Assembly: GCF_004010195.1 (NCBI RefSeq)
Contig: NC_057719.1
Coordinates: 13,624,151 to 13,685,533, forward strand
Direction of reading: 5' to 3'
Origin: Chiloscyllium plagiosum
Taxonomy: Eukaryota
Length of the DNA: 61,383 nucleotides
The position numbers were made by a program, and so were the translations under genes. Positions within the stretch are counted from its first letter, which is position 1. The number at the start of each line of letters is the position of its first letter. Of this stretch, positions 10,918 through 61,383 are shown in pieces. The notes below the pieces were generated by a model. That model was not told the origin of the DNA and made no database searches. It was given only the letters and a program-made list of their open reading frames with translations.

Positions 10918-11348
10918 GTGTGGCTCAGTGGTTAGCACTGCTGCCTTATAGTGTCAGGTGCCTGGGTTTGATTCTAGCCTCAGGTGGCTGTGTGGAGTTT
11001 GCATGTTCTCCGTGTGCTCCAGTTTCCTCCTACAGTCCAAAGATGAGCAGGTAAGGTGAACTGGCCATGCTAAATTGTCCAAAATATTCAAGGGTGTGTA
11101 GGTTGGGTGCATTAGTCAGGGATTGAATGGTAGGAGAATGGGTCTGGGTGGGTTACTCTTTCGAGGGTTGGTGTTGGCTTGTTGGGCCAATGGAGAAGGT
11201 GAGATCTGCAGATGCTGGAGATCAGAGCTGAAAATGTGTTGCTGGAAAAGCGCAGCAGGTCAGGCAGCATCCAAGGAGCAGGAGAATCGATGTTTCGGGC
11301 ATGAGCCCTTCTTCAGGAATGTCAAAGGGCTTGTTTCCATACTGTAGA
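10918..11348 (+). mobile_element. HE1-like SINE with a Penelope-like terminus inserted at about 11191-11320
   Basis: gtggctcagtggttagcactgctgcc head. The tail ttgggccaa...aagggcttgtttccatactgtag is interrupted by the family 1 terminus. Confidence 0.88.
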
Positions 11349-13320
11349 AATTCCAACAATTCCTTTGAGTCGGCCCACTTCCTCCAAATCTGTTGTCATA
11401 GGAACTCATGAGGATGTTTGCCATGCTTGCCTTGTTGGTGGGATCGATGGAATATTCTTTGTCCAATCTCACTTAGGCTCCCTCCCTCAGCTCTTTCTTC
11501 AAGTGAATGCTATTTCCACCTTTTGTTCCTAACTGGGCTGTTTCATCGACCTTCGTTCCAATTTGCACACTTCCCTCGATTTGACATACCCATTGCTCAT
11601 TCTTCCTTCTCTCTCTCAACTTTCCTAGCTCCATTTCTGGGAACAAGCTGGCAATAATTACTTAATAAAATCCCATGAACTCTCACAGCTACCTCAATGC
11701 TGTTTCCTCTGATTCATAGACTCATAGAGTCATAGAGATGTACAGCATGGAAACAGAACCTTTGGTCCAACCCGTCCATGCCGACCAGATATCCCAACCC
11801 AATCTAGTCCCACCTGCCAGCACCCGGCCCATATCCCTCCAAACCCTTCCTAGTCATATACCCATCCAAATGCCTCTTCAATGTTTCAATTGTACCAGCC
11901 TCCACCACTTTCTCTGGCAGCTCGTTCCATACATGTACCATCCTCTGTGTGAAAAAGTTGTCCCTTAGGTCTCTTTTATATCTTTCCCCTCTCACTCTAA
12001 ACCTACGTCCTCTAGTTCTGGACTCCCCGATCGCAGGGAAAATACTTTGCCTATTTATCCTATCCATGCCCCTCATAATTGTGTAAACCTCTATAAGGTA
12101 ACCTCTCAGCTTTCGACACAGCCTGTTCAGCCTTTCCCTATAGCTCAAATCCTCCAACCCTGGCAACATCCTTGTAAATCTTTTCTGAACCCTTTCAAGT
12201 TTCACAACATCTTTCCAACAGGAAGGAGACCAGAATTGCATGCAGTATTCCAACAGTGGCCTAACCAATGGCCTGTAGAGCTGCAACATGACCTCTCAAC
12301 TCCTGTACTCAGTACTCTGACCAATAAAGGAAAGCATACCAAATGTGACTCCACTTTCAAGGAGCTACGAACCTGTACTCCAAGTTCTCTTTGTTCAGGA
12401 ACACTCCCTAGGACCTTACCATTAAGTGTGTAAGTCCTGCTAAGATTTGCTTTCCCAAAATGCAGCACCTTGCATTTATCTGAATTAAACTCCATCTGCC
12501 AATTCTCAGCCCATTGGCCCATCTGGTCAAGATTCTGTTGTAATCTCAGGAAACCCTCTTTGCTGTCCACTAAACCTCCAATTTTGGTGTCATCTGCAAA
12601 CTTACTAACTGTACCTCTTATGTTTGCATCCAAATCATTTATGTAAATGACAAAAAGTAGAGGACCCAGCACTGATCCTTGTGGCACTCCACTGGTCACA
12701 GGCCTCCAGTCTGAAAAACAACCCTCCACTACCACCCTCAGTCTTCTACCTTTGAGCCAGTTCTGTATCCAAATGGCTAGTTCTCCCTTTATTCCATGAG
12801 ATCTAGACTTACTAATCAGTCTCCCATGGGGAACCTTGTCGAACGCCTTACTGAAGTCCACATAGATTACATCTACCACTCTGCCCTCATCAATCCTCTT
12901 TGTTACTTCCTCAAAAAACTCAATCAAGTTTGTGAGACATGATTTCCCACACACAAAGCCATGTTGACTATCTCTAATCAGTCCTTGCTTTTCCAAATAC
13001 ATGTCCCTCAGGATTCTCTCCAACAACTTGCCCACCACCGAGGTCAAGCTTACCGGTCTATAATTCCCTGGCTTGTCCTTACCACTCTTCTTAAACAGTG
13101 GCACCACGTTTGCCAACCTCCAGTCTTCCGGCACCTCACCTGTGACTATCGTTGATACAAATATCTCAGCAAGAGGCTCAGCAATCACTTCCCTAGCGTC
13201 ACAGAGTTCTCGGGTACACCTGATCAGGTCCTGGGGATTTATCCACCTTTACCCATTTCAAGACATCCAGCACTTCCTCCTCTGTAATCTGGGCATTTTG
13301 CAAGATTTCACCATCTATTT

Positions 13321-13558
13321 GGAGAAAGTGAGGACTGCAGATGCTGGAGATCAGAGCTGAAAATGTGTTGCTGGAAAAGCGCAGCAGGTCAGGCAGCATC
13401 CAAGGAGCAGGAGAATCGACGTTTCGGGCATGAGCCCTTCTTCAGGAATGAGGAAAGTGTGCCACACCTGCTTGGCATACTTTTCTCATTCCTGAAGAAG
13501 GGCTCATGCCCGAAACATCGATTCTCCTGCTCCTTGGATGCTGCCTGACCTGCTGCAA
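13321..13558. mobile_element. Fold-back Penelope-like insert (family 1) inside CR1 ORF2, 14-bp TSD
   Basis: TSD ttcaccatctattt at 13307-13320 and 13559-13572. 84-bp inverted arms at 13381-13464 and 13473-13556 with an 8-nt loop. Confidence 0.92.
13415..13448 (-). ncRNA. Minimal type I hammerhead ribozyme motif, intact core
   Basis: UUC-CUGAAGA-A-GGGC(UCAU)GCCC-GAAA-CG-UC-GAU: canonical CUGANGA/GAAA/UH core, stem II hairpin and palindromic ACGU stem III. Confidence 0.8.
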
Positions 13559-14688
13559 TTCACCATCTATTTCCCTACAGTCTATATCTTCCATATCCTT
13601 TTCCACAGGAAATACTGATGCAAAATATTCATTTCGTATCCCCCCATTTTCTGTGGCTCCACACAAAGGCTGCCTTGCTGATCTTTGAGGGGCCTTAATC
13701 TCTCCCTTGTTACCCTTTTGTCCTTAATGTATTTGTAAAAACCCTTTGGATTCTCCTTAATTCTATTTGCCAAAGCTATCTCATGTCCCCTTTTTGCCCT
13801 CCTGACTTGCCTCTTAAGTATATTCCTATTTCTTTTATACTCTTCTAAGCATTCACTCGATCTATCCTGTTTATATCTGACATATGCTTCCTTCTTTTTC
13901 TTAACCAAACCCACAATTTCTTTAGTCATCCAGCATTCCCTATACCTACCAGCCTTCCCTTTCACCCTGACAGGAATATACTTTCTCTGGATTCTCATTA
14001 TCTCATTTCTGAAGGCTTCCCATTTTCCAGCCGTCCCTTTACCTGNNNNNNNNNNNNNNNNNNNNNNNNNNNNNNNNNNNNNNNNNNNNNNNNNNNNNNN
14101 NNNNNNNNNNNNNNNNNNNNNNNNNNNNNNNNNNNNNNNNNNNNNNNNNNNNNNNNNNNNNNNNNNNNNNNNNNNNNNNNNNNNNNNNNNNNNNNNNNNN
14201 NNNNNNNNNNNNNNNNNNNNNNNNNNNNNNNNNNNNNNNNNNNNNNNNNNNNNNNNNNNNNNNNNNNNNNNNNNNNNNNNNNNNNNNNNNNNNNNNNNNN
14301 NNNNNNNNNNNNNNNNNNNNNNNNNNNNNNNNNNNNNNNNNNNNNNNNNNNNNNNNNNNNNNNNNNNNNNNNNNNNNNNNNNNNNNNNNNNNNNNNNNNN
14401 NNNNNNNNNNNNNNNNNNNNNNNNNNNNNNNNNNNNNNNNNNNNNNNNNNNNNNNNNNNNNNNNNNNNNNNNNNNNNNNNNNNNNNNNNNNNNNNNNNNN
14501 NNNNNNNNNNNNNNNNNNNNNNNNNNNNNNNNNNNNNNNNNNNNNNNNNNNNNNNNNNNNNNNNNNNNNNNNNNNNNNNNNNNNNNNNNNNNNNNNNNNN
14601 NNNNNNNNNNNNNNNNNNNNNNNNNNNNNNNNNNNNNNNNNNNNNNNNNNNNNNNNNNNNNNNNNNNNNNNNNNNNNNNNNNNNNNNN

Positions 14689-15667
14689 TCTTTCCTCACC
14701 CCCCCCCCCCCCCCCATTCCCCACCCCCCCCACCTTACTGTGCAATTCCTCCCGAGCAGTTCTAGCAAGTCTCCCTGCCAGTAAACTAGTCCTCTTCCAA
14801 TTTAGGTGCAATCCATCCTTCTTGTACAGGTCACTTCTACCCCAAAAGAGATTCCAATGATCCAAAAATGTGACTCCCTCTCCTATACACCAACTCCTCA
14901 GTTATGCATTCATCTGCTCTATCTTCCTATTCCTGCCCTCACCAGCTCATAGCACTGGGAGTAATCCAGATATTACTACTCTCGAGGACCTCCTTTTCAA
15001 ATTCCTGCCCAAATTGCTGTAATTTCCCTTCAGAATCTCATCCTTTTCCCTTCCTATGTTGTTGGTTCCAATGTGGACAATGACCTCTTGTTGCCCCCTC
15101 TCCCCCGTGAGAACATTCTGCACCCTCTGTGAGACATCCTTGATTCTAGCACCAGGGAAACAACACACCATTCTGCTCTTTCACTGCGGGCCACAGAAAC
15201 GCCTGTCTGTACCTCAGACTAGAGAGTCCCCTAACACAGTTGATGTCTTGGAAGCCGACGTACCCCTCGTTGCATTAGAGCCAGTCTCAAAGCCAGAAAC
15301 TTGGCTGTTTGTGCTACGTTCCCCTGAGAATCCATCACCCCCTACATTTTCCAAAACAGCATACCTGTTTGAAATGGGTATATCCACAGCAAACTCCTGC
15401 CCTAGGTGCCTACCTCTCTTACCTTTCCTGGAGTTAACCCATCTATGTGACTGTATCTGAGACTTTACCCCTTCCTATAACTGCCATCCATCACATACTG
15501 TTACTGTTGCAAATTCCTCATCGCTTCTATCAGTCTCTCCAACCGATCCACTCGATCTGATAAGATTCGCATCCAACAGCATTTATGGCAGATATAATCC
15601 ACAGTAACCCTTAAACTCGCTTTAAACCCCACATCTGACAAGAAGTACATATCACTACAAAGGCCAT
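14689..15667 (-). pseudogene. CR1 ORF1 (Cys zinc-finger/coiled coil plus SGNH esterase-like domain), broken
   Basis: MAFVVICTSCQMW...DYICHKC...LSDRVDRLERLI; VCCFPGARIKDV, VIVHIGTNNIG, VVISGLLP, DGLHLN. Confidence 0.88.
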
Positions 15668-16015
15668 TTTTGCTCCTTCACAATCTACAGGCCCAGAAAA
15701 TAACACAGTCTTATTCCTCTACAAAACATGCACCAGGCTAAATTAATAGTTATGGCTTATATTTTAAGTTTAATCAAGAGACATATCTCCAAAAACATAT
15801 AATCTAGAAATAACCGACTCTAATCACTACTGCAGCCTTTCTGTTGGACACACTTAAAACAACCATTAACTTATCTGATTCTGTGCTGTGACCTTCGCCC
15901 AAACAGGTTCCTCCAAGATTAGTTGTGAAGTTCACTGTTTGTTAATTTTCCCGGACGCACTCTGATGTCCAGCGATACATGAATTCAAAACAGCAAAGGC
16001 AGTAACTGTGCAGGT

Positions 16016-16046
<31 letters not shown>

Positions 16047-16294: not shown

Positions 16295-17130
16295 ACCTAG
16301 TGGTGTTATTGTTCGACTATTAATCCAGAGAGTTGAGAGTGTGGTGCTGGAAAAGCACAGTAAGTCAGGCAGCAGGAGAATTGATGTTTCGAGCAAAAGC
16401 CCTTCATCAGGAATGGGGCTATAAGCTGAGGGGAGTGGGGAGATAAACAGGGGTGGGGGGCGGAAGAAACTGGTGAAATCCACATTGATGCTGTGGGATT
16501 GGAGGGTCCTGAGGTGGAAGATGGGGTGCTCTTCTTCCAGGCGTCGAGTGGTAAGGAAGTGGCGATGGAGGAGGTCCAGGACCTGCATGTCCTTGGCAGA
16601 GTGGGAGGGGAAGTTGAAGTGTTCGGCCAGGGGGCAGTGGGGTTAGTTGGTGCGGGTATCCTGGAGATGTTCTCTGAAGTGCTCTGTGAGTAGGCATCCT
16701 GTCTCCCCACTGTAGAGGAGACCGCATCGGGAGCAACGGATACAGTAAATGATGTTTGTGGAAGGTCGGGAACGATGGATACTATTAATCCAGAGAGCAA
16801 TGATCAGATTCAATTTCTGGATTAGTGGTGCTGGAAAAACACAGCAGTTCAGGCAGCATCCAAGGAGCAGTATGATCCGATTCAAGTCCTGCCATGCCAG
16901 ATGGTGGAATTTGAATTCAATGAAAATCTGGGATTAAGAGTCTAATGATGACCATGAAACGATTATTGATTGTCAGGAAAAAAAAATCTGGGAGGAAACT
17001 GCTCACTTACCTGATCTGGCCTTCAGATGCATGGCAATGTAGTTCACTCTCAACTGCCTTCTGGGAAATTAGGGATGGGCAATAAGTGCTGGTTTTTGCC
17101 AGCGACACCCACGTCCTGTGAATGAATAAA
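16295..17130 (+). mobile_element. Second tRNA-like SINE family copy hosting two Penelope-like inserts
   Basis: cctagtggtgttatt...actattaatccagag...gattcaagtcctgccatgccagatggtggaatttgaattc...gggatgggcaataagtgctgg. An uninterrupted sister copy lies at 43300-43630. Confidence 0.75.
16333..16780 (-). mobile_element. Penelope-like retroelement 3' fragment encoding a GIY-YIG endonuclease remnant, 15-17 bp TSD
   Basis: NIIYCIRCSRCGLLYSGETGCLLTEHFREHL...RRLEEEHPIFHLRTLQSHSINVDFTSF. Hammerhead motif at 16380-16413. actattaatccagagag at 16316-16332 and 16781-16797. Confidence 0.92.
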
Positions 17131-19118: not shown

Positions 19119-19499
19119 GATGGTGACAAATGCCAATTCCCCATATTTTACATTAAATTTTACCCTACAGTACACCCGGCTAAAAGCTGACAATGGATAA
19201 CTTTCACTTGTTATATATTTCATGTCAAATTCTGTAATGAGCTCTGGATGAGTCAGAGATGCACCACAACAGAGCAGCCAATATTTGAAAGCAGGGCAAG
19301 TTGTCTTAGTGATGGAAGAGCTGTTACATATTTGCCTAGCATGTCAGGTGGGTGCAGCAGTAGAAATGAGTAATATCCATTCTCAGTACAAACAGTGTAC
19401 ATCTCCTGGTTATAGCTGTCAAGAATCACGCATCAGTCCAAGCTTTCACCTTGCACAGTTTTCATCAGAGCACACAGATCACTTGACACTCAATAACCC

Positions 19500-20050: not shown

Positions 20051-20371
20051 GGGCCACTTGATTTACCAGAATCTGCCCTTTGAAGGTTTTGGGGAGTTGT
20101 GGGGCTGCGGGGGGGGGGGGGGGGTCAGAGGTCACTGGGTGGAGGGAGGGGTGTTGGGAGAGACACAACCTCAAAGATCCGCCACCTGGGAAAGTCCCTG
20201 GCATGATTTGTTCTCGGATTGCGATGAGCTAAAATGATTTTTAGATTCTCAGGCAAACAAGGTCTTTGGGGATCAGGAAGGTAAGGGTTTTTGAGAATCA
20301 GCGATTTTCCTATTTAATAGCTAAGCAGGCTAGAGGAACTCCAAGGCTTTCTCCTGCTTCTATTTTGTATG

Positions 20372-20593
20372 AGTTAAAAAGTGTGGTGCTAGAAAAACAC
20401 AGCTGGTCAGGTAGCATCCGAGGAGCAGGAGAGTCAATGTTTCGAGCATAAGCTCTTCATCAGGAATGATTCCTGATGAAGATGCTTATGCTTGAAACTT
20501 TGACTCTCCTGTTCCTCGGATGCTGCCTGACCGGCTGTGCTTTTCTAGCACCACACATTTTGACTCCAATCTACAGTATCTGCTGACCTCACT
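20372..20593. mobile_element. Fold-back Penelope-like insert (family 1), 14-bp TSD with one mismatch
   Basis: ttctattttgtatg (20358-20371) and ttctattttgcatg (20594-20607). Arms meet at caggaat-g-attcctg (about 20468). Confidence 0.9.
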
Positions 20594-21974: not shown

Positions 21975-22200
21975 AAGTTAAAACTCACACAACACCAGGT
22001 TATAGTCCAACAGGTTTATTTGGAAGCACTAGCTTTCAGAGCATTGTTCCTTCATCAGGTGGTTGTGGAGCAGAACCACCTGGTAAAGGAGCAGTGCTCC
22101 AAAAACTAGCACTTCCAAATAAACCTGATGGACTGTAACCTGGCGTTGTGTGATTTTTAACTTTGTCCACACCCCAGTTCAACACCGGCATCTCCAAATC
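21975..22200. mobile_element. Fold-back Penelope-like insert (family 2)
   Basis: Inverted arms aagttaaaactcacacaacaccagg...caggtggtt / aaccacctgg...ggcgttgtgtgatttttaactt. Confidence 0.85.
22027..22061 (-). ncRNA. Minimal hammerhead ribozyme motif (family 2)
   Basis: CAC-CUGAUGA-A-GGAAC(AAU)GCUCU-GAAA-GC-UA-GUG: stem I CAC/GUG and palindromic AGCU stem III. Confidence 0.7.
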
Positions 22201-24794: not shown

Positions 24795-24894
24795 AATGAA
24801 ACTGAAAATGCCAGAGACACTCAGCAGGTCTGCCAATATCTGTAAAGACAGAAACAGAGTTAACATTTCTAGGCTGACACAACTTCTTCAGAAC
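24795..24894 (-). mobile_element. Penelope-like terminus fragment (family 4) with hammerhead-like motif at 24859-24894
   Basis: Minus strand GUU-CUGAAGA-...-GAAA-UG-UU-AAC. Confidence 0.65.
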
Positions 24895-30091: not shown

Positions 30092-30099
30092 ATAAGTCA

Positions 30100-32100
30100 C
30101 ATTGCCAGCGGGTTATAGAAAGGATGTGGTTTGGATGGTGCATGAACTACCAGTAGGCAGTCATTTAGGGGTAAGAAAAACCCAAGCTAAAATAAAAAAG
30201 CATTTTTACTGGCCTGGACTACACAAGGACATAGCTGAATTTTGCCAGACATGTCATATATGTCAGGTAATTGGAAAATCATAGGCAGTAATTGAACCTG
30301 TACTTTTACTACCCATTCTTGCATTTGAGGAATCTTTTATAAGAGCCTTAGTTGACTGTGCGGGACTCCTACTTAAAACAAAAATTGGGAATCAGCATTT
30401 GTTAACAATAATGGATGTGTTCACTAGATTTCCAGAGGCCATTCCATGATGCAATATCACAGCTAAAAGGATTGTAGAGGAATTACTCAAATTTTTCTCT
30501 TGACACGGACTACCCACAGAGATACATTCAGATCAAGGGTCAAGCTTCACATCAAAATTTATCAAGGATGTTATGGATAGCCTAGGAATAAAACAATTCA
30601 AATCTACTGCGTACCATTCAGAATGTCAGGCAGCACTAGGTAGGTGGCATCTGACATTATAGCCGATGCTGAGGGCTTATAGCTAAGACTATCCAAATCA
30701 GTGGGATAAAAGATTTTTGCCATCAGGGATGCACCAAAATAATTGACTAAATTCAGTCCATTTGAATTAATTTTTAGACATGAAGTGAGAGAACTGTTAA
30801 AATTAGAGTCATAGGGTCACAGAGATGTACAGCATGGGAACAGACCCTTCCGTCCAACTTGTCCATGCCGACCAGATATCCCAACCCAATCTAGTCCCAC
30901 CTGCCAGCACNNNNNNNNNNNNNNNNNNNNNNNNNNNNNNNNNNNNNNNNNNNNNNNNNNNNNNNNNNNNNNNNNNNNNNTTATTCCATACACGTACTAC
31001 CCTCTGCGTGACAAAGTTGCCCCTTAGGTCTCTTTTATATCTTTCCCCTCTCACCCTAAATCTGTGCGCACACCAGGGAAAAGACTTTGTCTATTTATCC
31101 TATCCATGTCCCTCATAATTTTGTAAACCTCTATAAGGTCATCCCTCAGCTTCCAGGGAAAACAGCCCAGCCTATTCCCTATAGCTCAAATCCTCCAATC
31201 CTGGCAACATCCTTGTAAATCTTTTCTGAACCCTTTCAAGTTTCACAACATCTTTCCGATAGGAAGGAGACCAGAATTGCATGCAATATTCCAACAGTGG
31301 CCTAGCCAATGTCCTGTACAGCCACAACCACTGTACTCAATACTCTGATCAATAAATGCCTTCTTCACTATCCTATCTACCTGTGACTTCACTTTCAAGG
31401 AGCTATGAACCTGCACTCCAAGGTCTGTTTGTTCAGCAACACTCCCTAGGACCTTACCATTAAGTGTATAAGTCCTGCTAAGATTTGCTTGCCCAAAATG
31501 CAGCACCTCGCATTTATCTGAATTAAACTCCATCTGCCACTTCTCAGCCCATTGGCCCATCTGGTCCAGAACCTGTTGTAATCTGAGGTAACCTTCTTCA
31601 CTGTCCACTACACCTCCAATTTTGGTGTCATCTGCAAACTTACTAACTGTACCTCTTATGCTCACATCCAAATCATTTATGTAAATGACAAAAAGTAGAG
31701 GGCCCAGCACCGATCCTTGGAACTTTCAATTGATTAAAGAGAAATCGGTAAGTCAGAATTCAGAGACCACATATTTGGACTGTTTCAAATTTTGAGGAAT
31801 GATTAAATAGAGCAGGGGAATTGGCTAGACAGCATTTAAAGGTATCACAGCATACAATGAAACAGGAGGCAGACAAGAAATCAAAAATTTGCAGTTTTGG
31901 GATCAGGGTTAAGATTTTAGTGTTTCTTCCAGTGATAGGTGAATCTTTAAAAGCAAGGTTTAGTAGAAATTATCAAGTCAAAAGGAAATTGAGTGAGGTG
32001 AACTATTTACGGACACATAGAAGTCTCACAGAGTATGTCATGTTAATCTGCTCAAAAGGTATTTTGACAGGGAAGGAAAGCGAAAGGAGACTATGTTATT
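30100..32100 (+). pseudogene. Integrase (H2C2 zinc finger plus DDE core), interrupted by a CR1
   Basis: HELPVGSHLGVRKTQAKIKKHFYWPGLHKDIAEFCQTCHICQ; VDCAGLL; IHSDQGSSFT; AYHSECQAALGRWH. Confidence 0.9.
30806..31720 (-). mobile_element. CR1 3' fragment nested in integrase (N gap 30911-30980)
   Basis: LGPLLFVIYINDLD...KFADDTKIGG; very similar to the 11.7-kb copy. Confidence 0.93.
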
Positions 32101-32253
32101 GATTACAACACAGAGTGAAGAACCAAGTTCAGAGGATTCTGAATTGAACATTCCTCAAATTAAATTAGACAATGTGGAAGTTGTCAAAAAATAGAATATA
32201 TTATTGAGTTACTTTCAGAGGAAAATCGAAATGATCTGAAAGAGTTATTACTA

Positions 32254-33550
32254 TTGCATGGGGAGATTTACGGAAATAAACTGGGAAGTACTAACCTAAT
32301 TGTGCATGATGTAGATATAGGAGATGCTGTTCTGATTAAGCAATATCCTTATAGGCATAACCCTCTAAAGTTGGCACAGGTTCAGAAGGCGATAAAGCGC
32401 ATGCTCCAAAATGGCATTAATCGAAGTGAGTTACAGTGACTGGAGCACATGCATAGTCATGGTGCCAAAGCCAGATGGTACCCAATGGTTATGTGTGGAC
32501 TATCGCAAAGTCAATGCAGTTACAACGACTAGTGTACATCTGCTTCTACACTTGGAAGTCTATGTTGAAAAGGTGGGACAAGCAACTTGTATTTCTAAGT
32601 TGGACTTGCACAGAGGGTACTGGCAGGTACCTCTGTGAGAAAGAGGGAAGACAACTTTGGCTTTCATAACCCTGAATGGACTGTATTAATTTGAAGTTAT
32701 GTCATTTGGCATGAAAAATGCTCCAGCTACATTTCAGAGACTAACTAATAAGGTCATTGTCGGATTACCCATTGTGTCATATATATAGATGACCTGGGAT
32801 TTTTAATCACGCATGGAAAGAATATTTGCAACATTTATCAGAATTGTTTGATCGACTTTGGGAGGCAGGCTTGGTAATAAACGTAGCTAAAAGTGAATTT
32901 GCCAAAACCTAAGTCACCTTCCTGGGCCATGTTATTGGAGATGGACAAATGGCCCCACAGGATGGAAGAACAAGGGTAAGTGGGGAGTTTCCCATACCGT
33001 TAACAAAAAGAGCAGTATTACGGTTCCTGGGATTGAGTGGAAAATTTCATGGAAAACTATTACCAAATTTTAACAGTGTGGATGCTGCACTCACTGGATT
33101 ACTAAAGAAAGGCCAGAGGTTTCAGTGGACAGCGGACTGTCAGAAGGCATTTGACAGCCTGAAAGCTGTGTTAACCATTGCCCCAGTATTTAGCCACACT
33201 CAATTATGCAAAGCCCTTCAAGGTGGCTATCGACGCAGGTGATGTGGGTATCGGTGCTGTGCTCTTACAGGAAGACGACGAGAAGATGGAAAGACCTATC
33301 GGGTATTTCTCCAGGAAGTTGAACACTCAGCAGCAGGAATATTCAATGGTTGAGAAGCAGACTTTGATGTTGGTGTTGGCGTTACCACATTTCAGCGTTT
33401 ATGTGTTTCTGAGACAGTGATCATAACCCATTGAAGTTTGTGGAGAAATTGAAGGACAAAAATGCCAGATTGTTCAGATGGAGTTTGTTGTTAAGCCATT
33501 CAATTTGAAAATTGTGCATGTGGCAGGATGAGATTGTCGACGCATTGTCG
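32254..33550 (+). pseudogene. Reverse transcriptase and RNase H, broken
   Basis: SDWSTCIVMVPKPDGTQWLCVDYRKVN, KLDLHRGYWQVP, FGMKNAPATFQR, YIDD (32782-32793), FKVAIDAGDVGIGAVLLQ, YFSRKLN, DHNPL. Confidence 0.93.
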
Positions 33551-39217: not shown

Positions 39218-39569
39218 TTCCTAGTATTCTAGACAGGGAACACAGGGGGCTAACACCTTCAACATCTTATCTGGCTGACATCAATTGTTACAGTTAGCCT
39301 GAGAATGTAACTTTTTTAAAAATGTTTTGTGATTTACATATGAAAGAAGTGAAACTATCATGTTCATTCCAATAGATGAGAGACTCAACAAACAATCAAG
39401 GTATTTTTCAATGTATAATTTCAGTTACATCATACTGTAAACTTTTGCTATAAATTCTGTGTCTTACAATAGTGTCCTCCACAACAGCCTGATGAAGGAG
39501 CGGCGCTCTGAAAGCTAATGCTTCCAATTAAACCTGTTGGACTATAATCTGGTGTTATGTGATTTTTAA
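39218..39569 (+). mobile_element. Penelope-like 3' fragment (family 2), 15-bp TSD, hammerhead motif at 39486-39520
   Basis: ctttaggaatctaga at 39203-39217 and 39570-39584; CUGAUGA-A-GGAGC(GGC)GCUCU-GAAA-GC-UA. Confidence 0.85.
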
Positions 39570-40577: not shown

Positions 40578-40758
40578 TTCTGGATCAGTGGTGCTGGAAG
40601 AGCACAGCAATTCAGGCAGCATCCGAGGACAGGCAAAATCGATGTTTCGGGCAAAAGCCCTTCATCAGGCTCGGATGCTGCCTGAATTGCTGTGCTCTTC
40701 CAGCACCACTGATCCAGAATCTGGTTTCCAGCATCTGCAGTCATTGTTTTTACCTCGT
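40578..40758. mobile_element. Fold-back Penelope-like insert (family 1), perfect 15-bp TSD
   Basis: tggttcccacaatga at 40563-40577 and 40759-40773. The ~50-bp arms enclose a minus-strand hammerhead motif (40638-40669) in the loop. Confidence 0.92.
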
Positions 40759-40794: not shown

Positions 40795-40895
40795 GATCCT
40801 GCTCCACAGTTACCTGATGAAAGAGCAGTGCTCCGAAAGCTAATACTTTCAACTACACCTGTTGGACTATAAGCTGGTGTTGTATGATTTTTAAC
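40795..40895 (+). mobile_element. Penelope-like terminus (family 2) with hammerhead motif
   Basis: cctgatgaaagagcagtgctccgaaagctaatac...ctgttggactataagctggtgttgtatgatttttaac. Confidence 0.82.
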
Positions 40896-44472: not shown

Positions 44473-44756
44473 GATAGATTCCAAAGAGTACACTGAGGTT
44501 GCTAACAGCTTCAACTTGCATCGACATTGCACACTGGCCACCAAAGCCCCCTGCAAAGCAACCACCTGCTTTTCAGCTACTTGCAACTTGTCCAGAGCAC
44601 GTTTTGACAATGTTGCCAGGGTCAAAACATGCTCTGGACAAGTTGCAAGTAGCTGAAAAGCAGGTGGTTGCTTTGCAGGGGGCTTTGGTGGCCAGTGTGC
44701 AATGTCGATGCAAGCTGAAGCTGTTAGCAACCTCAGTGTACCCTTTGGAATCTATC
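44473..44756. repeat. Long inverted repeat: 136-bp arms, 12-nt loop, 3 mismatches
   Basis: 44473-44608 is the reverse complement of 44621-44756 except at 44487/44742, 44514/44715 and 44600/44629. Confidence 0.98.
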
Positions 44757-45311
44757 GGCAGTCACCTTGCTAAGCCAACAGCTTGAAGAGTTTTATGACT
44801 TTATCACATAGCACAGTTGACCAGAAACTCAAGCTTCAATTCTGGAAGAATGGCACCTCATTTTCCAGTTGAGGACCCTGCAATCTTCTGGACTCAATAT
44901 CAAGTTCAACAACTTGAGGTCTTGAGCCCTCCCATGTCCTTACTCCCACCGCCCACACACAAGCCTTGTTATCACATCATCTCATTTGCTTCTTGCATTG
45001 TGTGCCTCGGGATAGTTTCCTTTGTATTACTTTACTCTTCACAGGCAAATCAAAATTGGCTGTTCATGGATTTTTTTTGTTGAATTGCAATCATTTTGAG
45101 CAGGTGTGACTTCCAGCTGTTCACCCTCAGAGTGGAGAAGTAAGATAATTTACCTCGTATACAGGATTATGAAACATCGCATCATGCCTTTGGAAGGAAA
45201 TGGTCATGTTTGGCAAAGTGCCAAATACAGCTATGATTCTAAATGCACATCAAAAATGTGACAGATTGAAAGTAGCAAATGCCATATTGATCAGCAACAA
45301 CAAAACATTTT

Positions 45312-45972: not shown

Positions 45973-46675
45973 TGTTATGAAAGTGTAGGAGTGCACTGTA
46001 CATTTAAGAGAGTGAAGGACTTGGCAAACACACAGTGCTGGAAAATTCTCAATGTAACATTTGGTTCAGAACGGATAGCACTAGCTGAGTTGCTATGAGA
46101 CGAAAAAACAAATTCAAATTCGGCCAATCAGTTTAAATTATACCCCAAAAAATACCAAATTCCAATCAAGTTTGAATTTAGTATATTGACAATCTGAAAA
46201 GCCAATGACACAATTCAATGTTTTGGGGGCATAAGATTGGGGAACATTGAGTTGGGAGGAGAACTGCCAAGTCACCAGCATGTAAAGACTGCCCAGAAAA
46301 TAGCTCTTTTAAAAGGTACCTTTATCAATCAGTAACCCGTGAAGCAGAATCCCTAAGAAGAAGAAAAGAAGACAGGAATTACAGAGAAAAACTGAAAGTG
46401 CAGGACTTTGAGATAAGAAGTTTTGCTTTGTAAATCTTAATCGGGATTTTTATTGGACCAGTGTTGTAGAGGGGAAAATAAAAGATAGGTTAGGGGAAGG
46501 AGTTGTAAATAATTGTTAGGTAACTATTCTCAGTTATACTTTAAGAAATAAAGCTGTTGATTTTTACTTCAAATAGTTCTTGGCCTCTCAAATTTTCACT
46601 GGTAACTGCACGGGATAAATCTTTTCTGTGTTGCTGGTTTAAATTAAGCAGAAGGGTTTACCCTGTGTCGTAACA
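45973..46675 (+). mobile_element. Solo LTR, AAGG target-site duplication
   Basis: tgttatga...tcgtaaca inverted ends; aagg at 45969-45972 and 46676-46679; internal aataaa near 46547. Confidence 0.88.
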
Positions 46676-47045
46676 AAGGGTTAGTGCGAGGATTAGGTTT
46701 AGGGTTAGGGTGAGGGTGAGGGCTAGGGTAAGGGTGAGGGTTAGGGTGAGAGTTAGGGTGAAGGTTAGGGTTAGGGTTTTAGTTAGCGTGAGGGTGAGTG
46801 ATAGAATTAGAGTAATGGTGTAGGTTAGGGTTAGGATGAGGGTGAGGGTTAGGGTTAAGGTTAGAATGAGGGTGATGGTTAGGGTTAGGGTGATGGTGAG
46901 GGTTAGTATTAGAGTTAGGGTTAGGGTGAGGGTGAGGGTTAGGGTTAGCATTAGCATGAGGATGAGGGCTAGGTTTAGGATGATGGTGAGGTTTTGTGTT
47001 GGGATGAGACCTTGGGTTAACGTGATGGTTGAAGAGTTAGGTGAA
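46676..47045 (+). repeat. Degenerate interstitial telomere-like hexamer array (TTAGGG, TGAGGG, TGATGG and other variants)
   Basis: About 60 hexamers in phase, many of them exact TTAGGG. Confidence 0.88.
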
Positions 47046-47109
47046 GAGAGTGATAGAGTTTGACTGGTTGTCTTAACTGAAACATTTTCAATCTCCAGGA
47101 ATTAGAGTC

Positions 47110-47934: not shown

Positions 47935-49497
47935 TGTAGTGATTGAAATGAGATCAACCAGGTGGACTTCATAGAATATGAGTGGACCAGATTAATAACC
48001 TCAATCAGGGAGCCCTGGCTGACAGTTATACACAGGAGTGTCAGAGGTTCTGTTCACTCTGAGAGCTGGCCCAGAGGGGGCTGGATTAGTATCAAAGACT
48101 CTCCATGTGTAAATAAAGGGTGATTTGTTGACAGGATATGGGCCTCTGTGGAGTTATTTCAGAGGCAATGCGAGAAAAACATGCTCCTGAAGAAATTTGC
48201 TCATAATAGTCGTCTTTGAGTTGGGGTAAGCATTTCTAGTGTGATGCTGTCATTTGGGAAGCTGGCCTTGTTTGATCCTGCCATCGAAGACTAGTGAGTT
48301 TTGGAAAGATTTGTAGCGCAGGTTGAGGTTCTGGATGTAGGTTTGCTCACTGAGCTGGAAGGATCGTGTTCAGACGTTTAATCACCCTACTAGGTAACAT
48401 CTTCAGTGAGCCACCAGACTAAGCTGAATATAAACCTTCCAGCTCAGTGAGCAAACCTAAATCCGCATTGAAGACTAGGCCCAGTATATGGAAAGAATGC
48501 AATAATTTTCCCAGGGAAATGAAACTGGGGCAGAAGAAAAGCAATGCATAATTCTCCTGAATGCTCTTGTGGACTCGCAGCTTTTTCAGTTATTAAGAGC
48601 CTAATTTTCCTTGGGAATCGGTTTAGCACAGTTGACTGGATTGTTGGTTTACAGAGCAGTGTGATGCCAACAGCATGGGTTCAATTCCCATCACTGGTTT
48701 GAGGTTATCAGGAAGGACTCTTCCCTCACCTGAGGTCTGGTGGCCCTCAGGTTAAATCGTGACCAGTTGTTTCTCTCTCTAATGAGAGAGCAGCCTCTTT
48801 GGGTCTGGTAAGACTAAAGTGACGCAACAACTATCTCTGAGACACCAGATATTAAAACCCTTCAAGAGTGAACAGATTTAGTTCATGAAAATTATGATCT
48901 AAGCTTCCTCCAATTCTAACTCACTATTGGTTTTACGAGGCAATTTGAGAACCAAAGGAATTGACATTGGGATTTTTGACTGGGTTAAGGTGACTAGCAG
49001 AGGCATGTGAATTTGGTTTAAACCTTAATGAGATGCTGAGAGACCATTTGATATGTTGGGTTAATGATGTAACCATGCTGAAGAGCCTACTAGCTAAAGC
49101 CCGACTGGACTTCAACCAGGCATTACAACTGGCTTTATCACTGGAAAATGCGGCAAATGGAGCATATGAGTTACAGTGTATTCTGATGGAAGTGGACTCC
49201 CTCACCAGTTTGACTGAACTTGGGGGACACCACTTGAGTGAAGGCAATTGCATATTCTCACTCAGGACATATCCTGATCAGAGGGACGCTAGGTCAACAC
49301 CCAGCAAAACTCCAAAACAAAGCCCAGCCTCGGCCAAACAATTCCAATTTTCTTCAGGATCTGGGATGGAAAGCCATTATAACTGCTGCTGGTATGTGGA
49401 CTGAAGACAGCAAAGGAGTCCCAAGAGACCTAAACCGAGTCAGAGAACTCATAGACCATTATCCAGGAGAGAGCACATACCCTGAAAAGTCCAATAG
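47935..49497 (+). mobile_element. 3'-truncated Gypsy element: LTR 47935-48161 plus decayed gag, interrupted by a Penelope-like insert and a SINE-like piece (about 48609-48826)
   Basis: TG...CA 227-bp LTR with aataaa; gag MLSFGKLALFDPAIED* and LRDHLICWVNDVTMLKSLLAKARLDFNQALQLALSLENA. Confidence 0.8.
48295..48469. mobile_element. Fold-back Penelope-like insert (family 3) with TSD gaagactag
   Basis: Arms taggtttgctcactgagctggaagg / ccttccagctcagtgagcaaaccta. Minus-strand UCA-CUGAAGA-U-GUUACC(UAGUAG)GGUGAU-UAAA-CG-UC-UGA at 48369-48410. Confidence 0.8.
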
Positions 49498-50165: not shown

Positions 50166-50167
50166 AA

Positions 50168-54169: not shown

Positions 54170-55233
54170 ACTTTCAGAGTTACACCTGACTGGTGTAGCT
54201 CACTGGAAAGTGACCCCTGTTTTTCCTCAGATTCTTGGAAAAGTTAAAGCTTTTATAAAGTACACAAAGTTCTCCAGTTTATCTGATTCAAAGACCCAGT
54301 TTCTCAAAGCATGGACCAGGTTTCTGTACTGATCAAGAACCATTAGTTATTACAAGCAATGAGATGCTAGTTACAGGTAAACAATTACAGACAATCAGCA
54401 CATAAGAACACAAATTAAAACATGAATCCCCTTATAAGCTCCCTCTTACAAGCAGACAGCCAGAGTAAAACAGGTTATGGACAGAGGAGATAAAACTGGA
54501 AAGACAGCGCAATAGTCATTGATTGCAGGTTCTGTTGTTAAGCTGATCTTCATGAACTTTCTGCTGGTCAGCACATTATTTCAACCGTCTTTCTCTGGGT
54601 GCTTCCACTGGTTGGTAAGAGATGCAAGGTGTTTGGTTCACATATAAAACATTTCTGTTTTAATAGTAAAAGTCACAGTTTACAAAAACAGCTGCAGGAA
54701 AAATAAACTTGTTTTCCTGGTTTAAAAGTTAGTGTTGACTGCCAATAATAAAGAGACTGTCCCTGAGCTGGGGAGAAGTGAACACATCTCTCTCTCTCTC
54801 TCTCTCTCTGTAATTTGTTTCCAGCTCCAACCTGTTCAGTTAGACAAGCAGGAGGCTGGAAGAACACAGCAGCATCAAGAGTTGGAGAAGTCAACATTTC
54901 AGGTGTAATCCTTCTTCAGGACCTTCTAACTAAGCTGCTCACAGTTACCTGAGACCGAATCACACAGTATTGACAGGCTAAAGGTTGATTGTCATTGGTA
55001 ACTGGTCACTAGTACATAGACCAATCAACTTCTTGTTGCTAACAAAAGCTACATCTGTCCAGCCTCCTGGCTCCAAGTAGTCTGCAACTCAACCTTCCAT
55101 CACTATTTACTCAGTTGGTTGTCTTCATGATGGTTACTTGCTTTTCAAAACATATACCTATCCTTCCAAACACTGATTTTAAAACTGCTCTTTCCCATTT
55201 CAGTCCACATTCCTTTTTTTAAATAACATCACA
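54170..55233 (-). mobile_element. Possible solo LTR-like element containing a small Penelope-like fragment (about 54845-54925)
   Basis: Right end reads tgtgatg on minus, with an internal CT tract as in the other LTRs. It lies between CR1-like remnants; left end and TSD are not clear. Confidence 0.3.
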
Positions 55234-55945: not shown

Positions 55946-55959
55946 GCTGGATGCTTGGT

Positions 55960-56720
55960 CCAGTAATGCCATTGAATGTCAAGAGGTGGTGGTTAGGCTG
56001 TCAGTGGGGACACAGCTTTCTCTGGCACTTGTAGTCATGAATGTTACTCGCCACTTGTCAACGTAAGTCTGATCGCTGCCTACTGTTGAAAGCAAGGACG
56101 GAATGCTGCACTGGCTGAAGCATTGCAAATGAAGCCGCACCATGATCAGTAACCAATCACATTTCTCCCTTGTTCTAAACTCAAAACTGGAAGGAGGATT
56201 GATAAAGCAGCTGAGGATGAGTGAGCCTAGGTCACTGTCCTGAGAATTTCTCCAGCTTTTGGACATGAGATCATTGGCATTCAACAAAGAGAAGCATTGT
56301 CTTTTATATCGCTTCAGCCACTGGAGAATTCTCACCAGATCCCATTTAATGTTAATTTTATTAGAATTCCTTTGTGCCATACTCAGTTAAATATTTCCTT
56401 AAAGTCAAAGGTAAGTCACTACTGTCTCATCTCTGAAATTCAGGTCTTGTGTCCATGCAATCACAATATTTAGACCTGAGCACTTCTGACAGAAATCAAA
56501 CTGAACATGGTTGAGCTGGTTTATCGTGATTAAAGTGTCACTAGCTTCCATTATTTGTTACTTTGTTCTTTGTCACTGATTGTGAGTCGAGTGATGGGAA
56601 GTAACTTGCTTGGTTGGATTTGTTCTGTTATATTTGGACAGGAAATAACTGGTACTTTTTCTCATTGCTGGGTCAATATGGTATGCTATCTGTGTGACTA
56701 GAGACAAAACTAGGTTCTAA
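55960..56720 (-). mobile_element. Old decayed CR1/L2-type LINE remnant
   Basis: YVDKWRVTF resembles the WADKWQVTF motif after the RT core. Confidence 0.5.
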
Positions 56721-57354
56721 GCACCAATACCATGATGGTATTGTACTGTTGTTCGAGTTGAATTTTCATTATTCCCAGTTTTAATTTTGGTTTTCAGCTA
56801 TGAACTGGAAACTAGGAGCTAAAGATGACTTTTGAATTATGGGTAACAGCTTGTATTAAAAGGAATTCAGACCAAATGAGTTTTTATTCATTGCTAAGAC
56901 TGGAAGTTAATTGTGGGTTGATTCCTGAGCAAAAGGTTGTGCAAATGCTTCATTACTGGGAAAGACCACTATGTTTAAAAAGAAAGCAGAAGCTGGCTAT
57001 TAATGAGGTCAGTACCCAAAAATTGGTTCCAGCAAGTCTGGAAAAGACCTTATGCTCAAACAAATGGCAGTTTTTCAATAATAACAGGGACCTCATGGTG
57101 GAGATGGTCAGTATGTCAGGAAGTAGTCAGAATTTTGATTTGGTATTTGGCCTGTGTTTTTGGTGGGAAAGAATCTGGATGTTGATGCAACAGCATAAAG
57201 ATTTGAAAACCCACTGCCTGACTTCCTATGAATCTCAAAGAGTAGAAAACTCAGTTGAAAGGCTTTTTCTGAGTGAACTGTAAAGGTGACCCTGATCAAC
57301 ACCTTCACAAAATCAACCAAGAAGCCATCATCAATACCTGTGGAAAAATGTCTC

Positions 57355-58365
57355 ACGAAACAAAAACAGAAATAGTTGGAAACGTTCAGTAGGTCTGGCA
57401 GCATGTATGAAGAGAGAAAGCAGAGTTAATGTTTTAGGTCAAATGACGCTTCCTCAAAAGAAAGGGTCACTCGACCTAACCCTTAATTCTTTTACTGTTC
57501 AAAAATCTATCTAATTTTGTCTTAAAAACATTCAAAGAGGTAGCCTCAACTGCGTCAATGGGCAGGGAATTCCACAGGTTCACAACCCTTTGGGTGAAGA
57601 AGTTCCTCCTCAACTCAGTCCTGAATCTGCTCCCCCTTATTTTGAGGCTATGCCCCATCGTTCTAGTTTCACCCACCAGTAGAAACAACCCCCTTGCTTC
57701 TGCCTTACCTATTCCCGTCATAATTTTATACGGTTCTATAAGAACACCCTCCCATTCTTCTAAATTCCAATGAACATAATCTCAGTCTACTCAACCCAGT
57801 TCTCAAAAGGAAACCTTCCCAATTCCAGAATCAACCCAGTGAACCTCCTCTACACCCCGTCCAGTGCCAGTACATCCTTCTCAAGTAGGGAGACCAAAAC
57901 TGTACATGGTACTCCAGGTGTAGCTCACCAGCACCCCATACAGCTGCAGCATAAATCTCCCTGTTTTTAATGCCATCCCTCGAGCAGTGAAGGACAGTAT
58001 TCTATTTTTCCTTCTTAATTACTTGCTCCACATGCAAACCAACTTCTCATGATTCATGCACAAGGACGCACAGTAAAGCAGCATGCTGCAAATTTTAATA
58101 ATAGTCCATTTTGCTATTATTCCTACCAAAATGGATGACCTCACATTTACAAACATTGTACTCCATCTGCCAGACCCTTACCTACTCACTTAACCTATCT
58201 GTATCCTCTGCAGACCTTCAGTGTCCTCTGCACACTGTCCACACTTCCAGTCAAAGCATACAGCACAGAAACAGACCCTTTGGTCCAATCAGTCCATGCC
58301 GACCATAATCCCAAACTAAACTAGATTCATTTGCCTACACATGACCCACATCCCTCCAAACATTA
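57355..58365 (-). mobile_element. Family 4 Penelope-like terminus (57355-57476) followed by CR1 fragments (57477-58230, 58250-58365)
   Basis: GHSLKIRGSRFRTELRRNFFTQRVVNLWNSLP. Confidence 0.85.
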
Positions 58366-58437
58366 CGTCTTTAGTTTAAGATGTAGCCTGCGATGCCTGG
58401 AGTTGATTATTCAAATGCCTGGCTGAGAACCATTAGG

Positions 58438-58561
58438 TGGGAGTGGGTGCTGCAGATGCAGGAGATTAGAGTCAAGATTAGAGTGGTGCTGGAAAAGCAC
58501 AGCAGGTCAGGCAGCATCCGAGGAGCAGGAAAATCGACGTTTTGAGCAAAAGCCCTTCATC
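58438..58561 (-). mobile_element. Penelope-like terminus (family 1), 12-bp TSD
   Basis: agaaccattagg at 58426-58437 and 58562-58573. Confidence 0.88.
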
Positions 58562-58829
58562 AGAACCATTAGGGTCAATTTTGATGATCTTTGAAAGTTT
58601 TAATTTTACTGTGTTGTAAATACAAAAGTAAAAAGGCTGATTTGGTTCAGCTGCCTGTCGCTGTGTTATAACATTGCACGGTTTGCCACAGGCAGTATTT
58701 TATGATACAAAATGCCAGTGTGCATGTAACTTTATATGATTTCCCCTTTACCTCTGGGGGCAAAATCCTCAGGGAGATAGGATAGAGTGGTTATATGGAT
58801 AAGGTGACTTTGTTCATGGAGAATTTTGC

Positions 58830-59190
58830 TTGTTTATTCGTGAGGGGTATAGATAAGGTAAACGACAGGTGTCTTTTCCCTAGTATTGGTGATTTCAAGA
58901 CAAGGGGGCATATGTTTAAGATGAGAGGAGAAAGATTTGAAAAAGACATGAGGGATGTGTTTTTTTTTACCAACAGTAGTTCATGTGTGGAAATGGTGGA
59001 TCACGTGCAGTTGCAACATTTAAAAGATATTTAGGTAAGTACATGAATAAGTAATGTTTGGAGGGATATGGGCCAAGTCCAGACAGGTGGAGCTAGTTTA
59101 GTTTGGGTTGGCATGGACTGATTGGGCCAACCTGTCTGTTTCCGTGCTGTATGGTTGGACCAAAGGTCTGTTCCTGTACTCTGATTCTAT
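58830..59190 (+). mobile_element. CR1 3' fragment with a duplicated tail segment
   Basis: VRGIDKVNDRCLFP...TRGHMFKMRGERF; ttgggccaa...tctgtttcc followed by ttggaccaaaggtctgttcc. Confidence 0.85.
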
Positions 59191-60337
59191 AATTGCAAGG
59201 CCACAGTTTTGGTTATGGTGTACACATTCATCAGTTTTCACAGAAGTGAATAGAAATGAGGATTTCAATCCCTAGAAATACTAGCAAAGAGGATGGCATT
59301 CCATGTAACTCGAACAGAAAGTAAGATACTAGCTGAATATAAAGCCTAATTATCTATAAGGCCTGTGTAAAAATTTGACTACAATCTATTATGGTAATTA
59401 GTATCCTCCTTGTTAATACTGTATATCATGCAGTTACAAAACAGAAATCCCTCAGCTTTGACACGTGAATGCCTATGTTCCAGGCACTGAGCAGAGATAA
59501 AGAAAATCTATCATTCTACAATACCAAATCTCAGCTCCAGTATTGTTTCATGATTTATGGGGGAGCAGGATATAATCTCAAGGGGAAAGTGTAAAGTAAC
59601 CACATACACCGTGTATGAACATATTTTTATGAGTCAGGAGTGGCACAACACATTCACACCAAATTTTCCTTCAGAATAAAGGAAGCTTCAGGAGGCTGGA
59701 AGATTTAGAGAGACTGCTAACAAGATCCCTTTAACCTGCCATTAAGTAAACATTGTTTGCAGAGCTTGGAGGAGGGTTATCGAGGGCTAGAGGGCTCAGT
59801 GTGTTGTATGAAGGCAGCAGCTCAGAGGCCCCAAGGTTGTGGTCATTACAATGCTGCACTGCCCTCATGGTCATGTCCATAATGTGACCTTGTGAGCACG
59901 TGTCCAGGGTTCTTGAGTGGATGCACTTCAGCAGTACCTGACAGGCATCCACATTAGAACAGGAGGATTCTGTGTAATGCAATGTGGGCCACACATTCCT
60001 AACACTGTTGGGTGTGGGTCTGAAAGGTTTCATATCTGGGAGAATGTGGAATGCACTCAGCATTGTGGTAATGCACAGTCAGGCTCTGTATAAGACCATC
60101 CATAGGGAAATGGGGAAAGCTTCTCGCACGAGCAGCAGCATTCATAGAAATACTCGAGTATCGCAGAATCACAGAAATATTAAAGCATGGAACATGGCCA
60201 TTCGGCCCATCTTGCCTGTGCCAGCTTTTCAAGCAATCTAGTGCCCATCTCCTGCTCTTTCCCCATACCCTTGTATGCTATTTTGCTCCAAATAATCATC
60301 CCCTCTTCAATATTTCAATTGAATCTACCCCAACCAC

Positions 60338-60648
60338 AGGGTGGCTCAGTGGTTAGCATGGACCCAGATTACATTCCATCCTTGGGTTACTGTGTGGCAT
60401 TTGCACAATGTCCCAGTGTCTGCATGGGCTTCCTCCAGGCACTCCAATTTCATCCCATAGTCCAAAGCTAGAGGGATTGGCTATGCTAAATTGTCCCATA
60501 GTGTCCAGGGATGTGCAGGTTAGGAAGATTAGCCATGGGAAATGTAGGATTACAGAAATGGAGGGGGTATAGGTGGGATGCTTTTTGGAGAGTCAGTGTG
60601 GACCCAATGGGCCAAATAGCCTGTTTTCACACTGCAGCGATTCTATGA
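60338..60648 (+). mobile_element. HE1-like SINE inserted into an antisense CR1 tail (about 60165-60690)
   Basis: ggtggctcagtggttagca head; gggccaaatagcctgttttcacactg tail. Confidence 0.82.
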
Positions 60649-61202
60649 AATTGACTCAACATTTCCAGGCAGTGCATTCCATACTTTTAACGCCCCACTG
60701 ACCATACCCTGTATATGGATCACAGTTTTGTAATAATCATCTGACTGTTCACTTGAACACACTCTCAAGATCTCTACTTGTTTAACCACAGTGGGTTAAC
60801 TCATCCACAACTAACCAGATCATCATGATAACCAGTAGAATTCTGACATTGGTGATAACAGCAGTTTTTCAACTAAATCTAACTTAATCAATGTCAAAAT
60901 CAAGAAAGAAAATAGAACTGGGACAACATGTGATGATAAAAAGGTCAGACTTGAAGGATTGCTGATGAGCCTTTCTCAGATTTATTACAATCTGAAGAAA
61001 ATCTCACTCTAGAGAAAGAAATTCATTTGGAAAGAAAAGCAAAGTAGAACTGATCGATCCTCAAGGGTGAGAGAAAATCTTTGGTACAGGAGATCTTCCA
61101 AATCTATTTGCTTTTTTAAAAACAATACAGTAAAAGGAAACCAAGAAAAGAAGATAGATTCGGGAGGACGAGCACAATTATCTGAAGTCTTCATCAATGC
61201 AG

Positions 61203-61383
61203 TGGCTGAAAATGTGTTGCTGGAAAAGCACAGCAGGTCAGACAGCATCCAGGGAACAGGACAATCGACGTTTCGGGCATGAGCCCTTCTTCAGGAATGA
61301 GTAAAGTGTGCCCAGCAGGCTAAGATAAAAGGTAGGGAGGAGGGACTTGGGGGAGGGGCGTTGGAAATGCGATAGGTGGAAGG
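61203..61383 (-). mobile_element. Penelope-like element 3' end (family 1), continuing beyond the window
   Basis: Same terminus as 13321, followed by a G-rich body. Confidence 0.88.
61264..61297 (-). ncRNA. Minimal type I hammerhead ribozyme motif, intact core
   Basis: UUC-CUGAAGA-A-GGGC(UCAU)GCCC-GAAA-CG-UC-GAU. Confidence 0.8.

Follow-up and report, generated by a model that had tools for sequence, protein, structure and literature searches.

Penelope-like retroelements (PLEs) of metazoans carry minimal type I hammerhead ribozymes (min-HHRs) in their pseudo-long terminal repeats (pLTRs), as described by Cervera and De la Pena in 2014 (PMC4209133). According to that paper, these motifs are mostly solo, with some opposite-strand pairs, number thousands per genome and fall into several families; monomers were inactive, and dimeric constructs cleaved weakly in vitro. 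For the Anolis carolinensis Poseidon element (PAc; Frangieh et al. 2024, PMC11167929), in vitro insertion does not depend on ribozyme cleavage, which itself requires the element's protein, and two internal reverse-transcription starts were measured. A 2026 preprint on non-LTR retrozymes (Li, Clavereau, Pollet, bioRxiv 10.64898/2026.07.22.740005) lists these units for one chondrichthyan genome, which leaves the lineage barely sampled, and reports cleavage in vitro for one of nine native Xenopus tandem dimers. Here, we analyzed a 61,383-nt stretch of the shark Chiloscyllium plagiosum (RefSeq assembly GCF_004010195.1, contig NC_057719.1, positions 13,624,151 to 13,685,533), hereafter the window, in which an original prediction had placed a dispersed set of min-HHRs in four families with covarying helices. 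The hammerhead motifs are real as a set and, as judged from their sequence context, sit in short 5'-truncated PLE insertions; very probably, they are passive genomic footprints of several PLE families, mostly decayed.

Census and covariation of the hammerhead motifs

The core pattern CUGANGA-N9-25-GAAA-NN-UH was matched exactly 14 times on the two strands of the window, whereas 100 dinucleotide shuffles of the window, which set the chance level, averaged 1.05 matches and never exceeded 4. A hammerhead-like motif was present at all 12 positions listed in the original prediction, and 11 of the 14 exact cores were already on that list, the additional ones lying at 20473, 54893, and 19440 (the last doubtful). 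The extra nucleotide after A9, stem II, and the ACGU or AGCU palindrome or its CpG-decayed form were all found as predicted. An Infernal/RNAMotif-type scan had also been proposed, with a divided outcome: a stricter descriptor requiring both stems gave 2 exact matches and 4 at one mismatch or fewer (12 shuffles yielded no exact and one single-mismatch match), but no hammerhead family was among the 9 Rfam matches at E values up to 5, which were hairpin microRNA models only, all under gathering scores. Profile searches added copies with one or more mismatches at 196, 6033, 22080, and 58536, as well as five older, decayed family-4-like copies with a shared tail at 7703, 42974, 55780, 55872, and 57376.

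Nineteen copies were scored position by position for the core, stem II, stem III, and stem I. The full core is present in 14. The 10.1/11.1 pair is G-C in 9/19 copies, G-U in 6/19, and broken at 6060, 40814, 24891, and 19468. Helix III retains a perfect palindrome (ACGU or AGCU) in 8/19, while 9 of the remaining 11 show the CpG-decayed form ACAU/AUGU. Only two copies, 13418-13445 and 61267-61294, are intact, retaining the core and the palindrome together with all 4 bp of stem II and the inner pairs of stem I. Nearly every copy in the window is broken or folded shut.

Several details of the predicted families had to be revised. At 48369 the expected GAAA reads UAAA, with loss of G12, and at 24859 the core-proximal pair of stem II is missing, positions 10.1/11.1 being G/A. 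The CAC/GUG stem I given for family 2 holds at 22027 but is intact in only one of four copies, the first pair being mismatched at 39486 and 40811. Likewise, the ACGU stem III of family 1 is perfect at 13415, 61264, and 58536 (where G12 is lost) but in just these 3 of 11 copies. The 12 listed motifs amount to 11 insertion events, as 13415 and 13488 share one 14-bp target site duplication (TSD). Instead of four families with unrelated flanks, we found three unrelated flank groups, since families 4 and 5 have the family-1 tail. A family-1 profile matched 24809-24891 weakly (E 0.027) and the family-4-like relatives at E values of 8e-7 to 4e-3; families 1 and 4 are related by sequence.

The claim that the helices covary stood between families and fell within family 1. 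Because MAFFT misaligned family 3, cross-family covariation was assessed by permutation. With one copy from each of five families, a small sample, the cognate stem I strands paired at 14/15 positions and the cognate stem II strands at 11/20 (Watson-Crick), each the best of 120 permutations. Such between-family covariation agrees with selection on structure in master elements, which may be its cause. Within family 1, covariation was rejected, its score being reached by 190/500 shuffles. The GAGC/GCUC double change at 20433 is real (A-U for G-C at 10.2/11.2, with a G-U intermediate in two other copies), yet it represents a single insertion event and adds no within-family covariation above shuffles.

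Decay of family 1 is concentrated at CpGs, with 13 CpG transitions in 54 site-copies versus 7 other changes in 162. We also compared contigs from four public runs, two of DNA and two presumed to be of RNA, with window positions 61150-61383 (234 nt). The DNA runs gave 36,522 and 37,479 matching contigs and the presumed-RNA runs 9,029 and 3,845; depth in contigs is not copy number, and the presumed-RNA runs attest only the presence of hammerhead family sequence. Over this interval, all five of the core-and-stem variants listed fall on CpGs, and two other motif variants lie in loop II. The motif contains three CpGs, at C11.1-G12, inside the palindrome, and across the cut site, and methylation would therefore tend to destroy it after insertion.

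Carrier insertions and their 5' ends

The motifs, the insertions that contain them, and the associated PLE pieces are as follows (ORF, open reading frame; LINE, long interspersed nuclear element).

196-223, plus strand: family 1 min-HHR, core broken (G5A), pLTR-like sequence extending upstream
280-559, plus strand: array of six 48-nt units, arranged head to tail, of the family-1 tail alone, without a hammerhead core
6033-6060, minus strand: family 1 min-HHR, broken (C3U, G10.1U, G12A), adjoining a CR1-like LINE fragment
7527-7704, minus strand: 3' end of a PLE endonuclease ORF, then pLTR-like sequence up to an assembly gap
11289-11316, minus strand: family 1 min-HHR, intact core, stem III ACAU (CpG decay), 5' end ~5 nt upstream of C3
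13321-13558, unstranded: 238-nt inverted insertion inside a CR1-like LINE, 14-bp TSD at 13307-13320 and 13559-13572
13418-13445, minus strand: family 1 min-HHR, sequence intact, sequestered in a hairpin by the 13492 arm
13492-13519, plus strand: family 1 min-HHR, inverted partner of 13418-13445, stem III ACAU
16333-16780, minus strand: 448-nt 5'-truncated PLE insertion with the GIY-YIG end, a short pLTR, the hammerhead, and the tail, 17-bp TSD at 16316-16332 and 16781-16797
16454-16780, minus strand: GIY-YIG endonuclease remnant, one in-frame stop
16383-16410, minus strand: family 1 min-HHR, in sense, downstream of the GIY-YIG ORF, G16.2A and G1.1A
16823-16877, minus strand: family 1 tail-only copy
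19440-19468, minus strand: exact core plus AGCU without a proper stem II; doubtful, a further family or chance
20368-20593, unstranded: 226-nt inverted insertion, 10-bp TSD, tail on one arm only, with min-HHRs at 20436-20463 (minus, GAGC/GCUC) and 20473-20501 (plus)
21975-22200, unstranded: family 2 inverted pair, ~36-nt tail on the plus arm only, no TSD found, with min-HHRs at 22030-22058 (minus; intact core, stem II mismatch, trapped in a hairpin) and 22080-22108 (plus; A6G, G8A, G12A)
24862-24891, minus strand: family 4 motif, intact core, stem I GUU/AAC, stem II broken beside the core, family-1-related tail
39489-39517, plus strand: family 2 min-HHR, core and stem II intact, first stem I pair lost
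40578-40758, unstranded: 181-nt insertion, 15-bp TSD, with a family 1 min-HHR at 40641-40668 (minus; stem III ACAU, 5' strand of stem I lost) and an inverted tail-only arm
40814-40842, plus strand: family 2 min-HHR, 10.1/11.1 A/C, first stem I pair lost
48295-48469, unstranded: 175-nt insertion, 9-bp TSD, with a family 3 min-HHR at 48373-48406 (minus; G12U, 7-bp stem II, stem I UCA/UGA) and an inverted tail-only arm
54893-54919, minus strand: family 5 min-HHR, intact core, stem I GUC/GAC, stem III AUGU, family-1-related tail
58438-58561, minus strand: 124-nt insertion, 12-bp TSD, 5' junction within the first core bases, with a family 1 min-HHR at 58536-58563 (minus; G12A)
61267-61294, minus strand: family 1 min-HHR, the sole copy both intact and untrapped, pLTR-like sequence to the window edge

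Three of these loci have further features of their own. The 280-559 array looks like a minisatellite derived from a PLE end; the minus-strand hammerhead at 11289-11316 adjoins a very weak match to a PLE reverse transcriptase (RT) region at 11355-11710 on the plus strand (E 0.006); and 16316-16890 holds two family-1 insertions ~30 nt apart within one short repeat.

The original prediction had tied family 1 to PLEs through a GIY-YIG remnant, and this remnant was found at 16454-16780, in sense upstream of the motif and within the same TSD-bounded insertion. A 109-amino-acid (aa) read-through of the remnant retrieved its closest homologues, two Chiloscyllium punctatum proteins (E 4e-35 and 1e-32), while a search with the 61-aa endonuclease end alone found nothing. 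Over 88 aa, the remnant shares 76% identity with P0002, a Chiloscyllium RT-endonuclease (RT-EN) protein. P0002, the longer homologue, has weak RT and GIY-YIG Pfam matches, each under its curated cut-off, and a C-x4-CxxC linker; a C-x2-5-CxxC zinc-finger linker was also seen in the four further long matches checked. According to Craig et al., such a linker zinc finger between RT and EN marks the Neptune and Nematis clades. By these sequence features, family 1 is most likely a Neptune-type PLE. A full-library search returned 1,759 relatives at E values up to 0.001, and the window contains two more endonuclease ends, at 7527-7704 and 44842-44919.

The form of the insertions is also typical of PLEs. 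TSDs of 9-17 bp flank 6 of the 13 sites searched; none was found at 22.0, 39.5, 40.8, 54.9, or 6.0 kb, and the 8-bp matches at 11.2 and 24.8 kb are unconvincing. Five loci are head-to-head inverted pairs, all five with an extension on one arm only, ~27-38 nt long in four of them and longer at 13.4 kb. PLE inserts are described as an inverted 5'-truncated copy with an optional 30-40-bp tail (Craig et al.). Families 2 and 3, which have no ORF in the window, also show this PLE signature of an inverted partner and a one-sided tail. The predicted identity as PLE-type minimal type I hammerheads was thus supported, most clearly for family 1 through its GIY-YIG remnant. A general start of tail-only copies at the cleavage site was not supported: of four, one, the inverted tail-only arm of family 3 (48424-48464), begins no more than 1 nt from the predicted site, and the others begin ~7-15 nt downstream.

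Insertion 5' ends tend to fall near stem I. Among family-1 events, 5/9 end within about 8 nt of C3 (6060, 11316, 20463/20473, 40668, and 58563), one ends at about -20, and three continue upstream; in all three family-2 events, shared sequence reaches only to about -12 to -16. In the four public runs, contig depth drops between bins 61286-93 and 61302-09 by factors of 3.7, 2.9, 4.8, and 10. In every run, a loose end at 61297-61301, which corresponds to the 5' strand of stem I, is among the six best supported listed, with 718 more besides. In run X6, 191 contigs have such an end at 61298 with long, unlike flanks, and 6 of the 15 joints listed have an end at 61297-61301 while 8 of the 12 rows listed begin at 61295-61299. 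PMC4209133 likewise places an intron end of Drosophila virilis at the 5' strand of stem I. It is conceivable, although we consider it improbable, that the 5' ends cluster 3-7 nt upstream of the core and that the hammerhead fold or an RNA start bounds a ~100-130-nt mobile unit. If so, the ribozyme would shape PLE insertions without cutting, since the copies span the scissile bond, and the vast numbers of solo minimal hammerheads would be explained. A literature search, with Lunse et al. outside its coverage, found no statement of this idea.

A related alternative to random truncation is that the mobile species is itself this ~100-130-nt unit of stem I, hammerhead, and tail, copied whole by the PLE enzyme. 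Its RNA would begin at the stem I base, by a start or a processing site, much like a monomeric retrozyme or a short interspersed nuclear element, and the copies would be complete rather than randomly truncated. The family-1 ends near C3, the limit of family-2 sharing, and the depth drop, loose ends, and joints in the public runs all favor such a unit. However, subfamily divergence upstream of the core also lowers depth and creates loose ends, of which there are 718 beyond those listed, and contig depth does not equate to copy number. Moreover, the core is closely preceded by ATT, the trinucleotide preferred by the anole endonuclease (PMC11167929), so that microhomology joining could give the same hotspot; 5' junctions with microhomology have been described in PLEs (PMC3846280). 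A long, ORF-bearing copy also exists (16333-16780). On balance we regard a short mobile unit as a doubtful, minority interpretation, and 5' truncation of PLE insertions as the better one.

The public contigs contain two other kinds of joint. Those going back 34-45 nt (61254-61301) imply head-to-tail hammerhead-only duplications elsewhere, and one going back 94 nt (two DNA runs, one presumed-RNA run) implies tandem units of hammerhead plus tail. If such tandems exist, they would be natural cis dimers or retrozyme-like arrays.

Folding, cleavage potential, and best explanation

The original prediction had further proposed that a read-through transcript of the region would carry many self-cleavage modules, and that 13415 and 61264 might pair as a dimer. 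Neither proposal was supported: 2/19 copies are intact, and a Pfam scan of 150 non-repeat ORFs, the longest of 353, found no host gene. When folded with its flanks, 13415 pairs almost perfectly with the 13488 arm in a hairpin, with a stem II probability of 0.000 (ViennaRNA), and ~52 kcal/mol would be needed to reach a hammerhead-ready state; in a minus-strand transcript, the antisense arm is made before the motif. Copies 13488, 20433, and 22027 are likewise trapped (37-49 kcal/mol). The other six copies tested require 1.5-8.8 kcal/mol, and 61264 is the sole intact one among them. Based on this modeling, cleavage of these copies at this locus is unlikely.

Cleavage of 13415 and 61264 as a double hammerhead within one read-through transcript has in its favor that both copies keep the core, stem II, and ACGU on the minus strand, that dimeric PLE constructs show low in vitro cleavage (PMC4209133), and that related sequence was found in the two presumed-RNA runs. 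However, 13415 is locked as described, 47,849 nt separate the two copies, and the modeled double hammerhead (-13.3 kcal/mol) is less stable than two monomers (-16.4 kcal/mol) and a non-productive 6-bp duplex spanning the cut site (-21.9 kcal/mol). Given also the single active dimer among the nine from Xenopus in the preprint and the lack of a host gene in the ORFs scanned, such a dimer across 48 kb appears very unlikely. Least credible of all is that the motifs arose by chance in repeat-rich DNA or are palindromes devoid of catalysis, because, although Rfam gave no hammerhead match and about one exact core plus UH is expected by chance (perhaps 19440), the census against the shuffles (14 versus a maximum of 4) and the recurrence of each diagnostic min-HHR feature across different flanks refute a chance origin for the whole set.

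A second palindrome of GUCGAU type overlaps the cut site at 61262-61269 and at equivalent positions in families 1, 4, and 5. The non-productive dimer that it forms is predicted to be stabler than the ACGU dimer (ViennaRNA) and may represent an off-state or chance.

We therefore return to passive footprints of PLE insertion as the best explanation. In active masters, the pLTR would bear a minimal type I hammerhead that, following the literature, folds as a double via its 4-nt palindrome with a second copy in tandem RNA, probably assisted by the element protein. Selection on masters would keep the core and let the helices covary between families, a pattern that was observed here and of which selection is the presumed cause. 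As the one-sided tails suggest, reverse transcription would have two alternative starts, ~60-110 nt downstream from the core; it usually halts soon past the core, often adding an inverted arm, so that the genome fills with 100-450-nt inserts bearing TSDs. All hammerhead-bearing copies span the scissile bond; the template RNA was therefore presumably uncut or re-ligated. Once inserted, copies decay neutrally, fastest at the three motif CpGs, and those at this locus most likely do nothing.

Several points weigh against this explanation. The RT and the linker are visible in the homologue and not in the window, whose truncated copy lacks the RT-EN linker part and retains only the EN end, and the GIY-YIG piece itself is under the Pfam cut-off (E 0.08). 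No ORF is linked to families 2, 3, 4, or 5 within the window, and the three family-2 events searched have no TSD. The permutation test is partly circular as well as small, the copies having been recognized partly by their stems. Nearest-neighbor energies omit the core and tertiary contacts and are compatible with cleavage in close tandem, and the inertness of the copies is something that we infer.

The set is chiefly useful as material for asking what the hammerhead does in PLE transposition. In a genome rich in short insertions, 5' junctions and reverse-transcription starts can be mapped against the ribozyme, and a stem I boundary, if true, would be direct genomic evidence of the motif's role during insertion.

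Window setting and comparison with known systems

The window has 41.6% G+C, a CpG observed/expected ratio of 0.25, and 28% self-repeat, with numerous CR1-like LINE fragments and four assembly gaps. Among the 150 ORFs scanned, four had Pfam matches, three to transposon domains and one, weak and under cut-off, to OSK. An integrase zinc-binding domain (30096-30281) and an RT-RNase H match (33175-33417) indicate remnants of an LTR retrotransposon (30096-33417). At 44473-44756 lies a near-perfect palindrome (136-nt arms, 98% complementary, 12-nt spacer) that resembles a miniature inverted-repeat transposable element by look, and at 46650-47070 a degenerate array of TTAGGG-like hexamers resembles an interstitial telomeric repeat.

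No shark was found in the text and two supplement files of PMC4209133 that were available, and a literature search combining shark, Penelope, and ribozyme found no paper with both Penelope and ribozyme. Non-LTR retrozymes, as presented in the preprint, resemble the present copies in being non-coding HHR units from PLE pLTRs. In contrast to the window copies, which are solo or inverted only, retrozymes are defined by head-to-tail HHR-bearing tandems; none of at least two units was found in the window, where the sole tandem array (280-559) has no core.

The elements compare with PAc in having two alternative 3' ends ~60-110 nt past the hammerhead and genomic copies that span the scissile bond, which fits an uncleaved RNA template. 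They differ from PAc in that the family-1 homologue has a Neptune-type linker zinc finger rather than the Poseidon layout, and in that the window holds no active element.

The closest match is to the min-HHRs of PMC4209133, with which the present motifs share the core boxes, the extra nucleotide between 9 and 10.1, the G10.1-C11.1 pair, the palindromic 15.2-16.2 region, and a short helix I. Similarly, there are several consensus families, mostly solo motifs with some opposite-strand pairs, and a position downstream of a GIY-YIG ORF, here for family 1 only. Unlike the Schistosoma type, family 1 is shorter, with a 4-bp stem II and two firm stem I pairs. The class has been known since 2014, and this set adds one more example to it.

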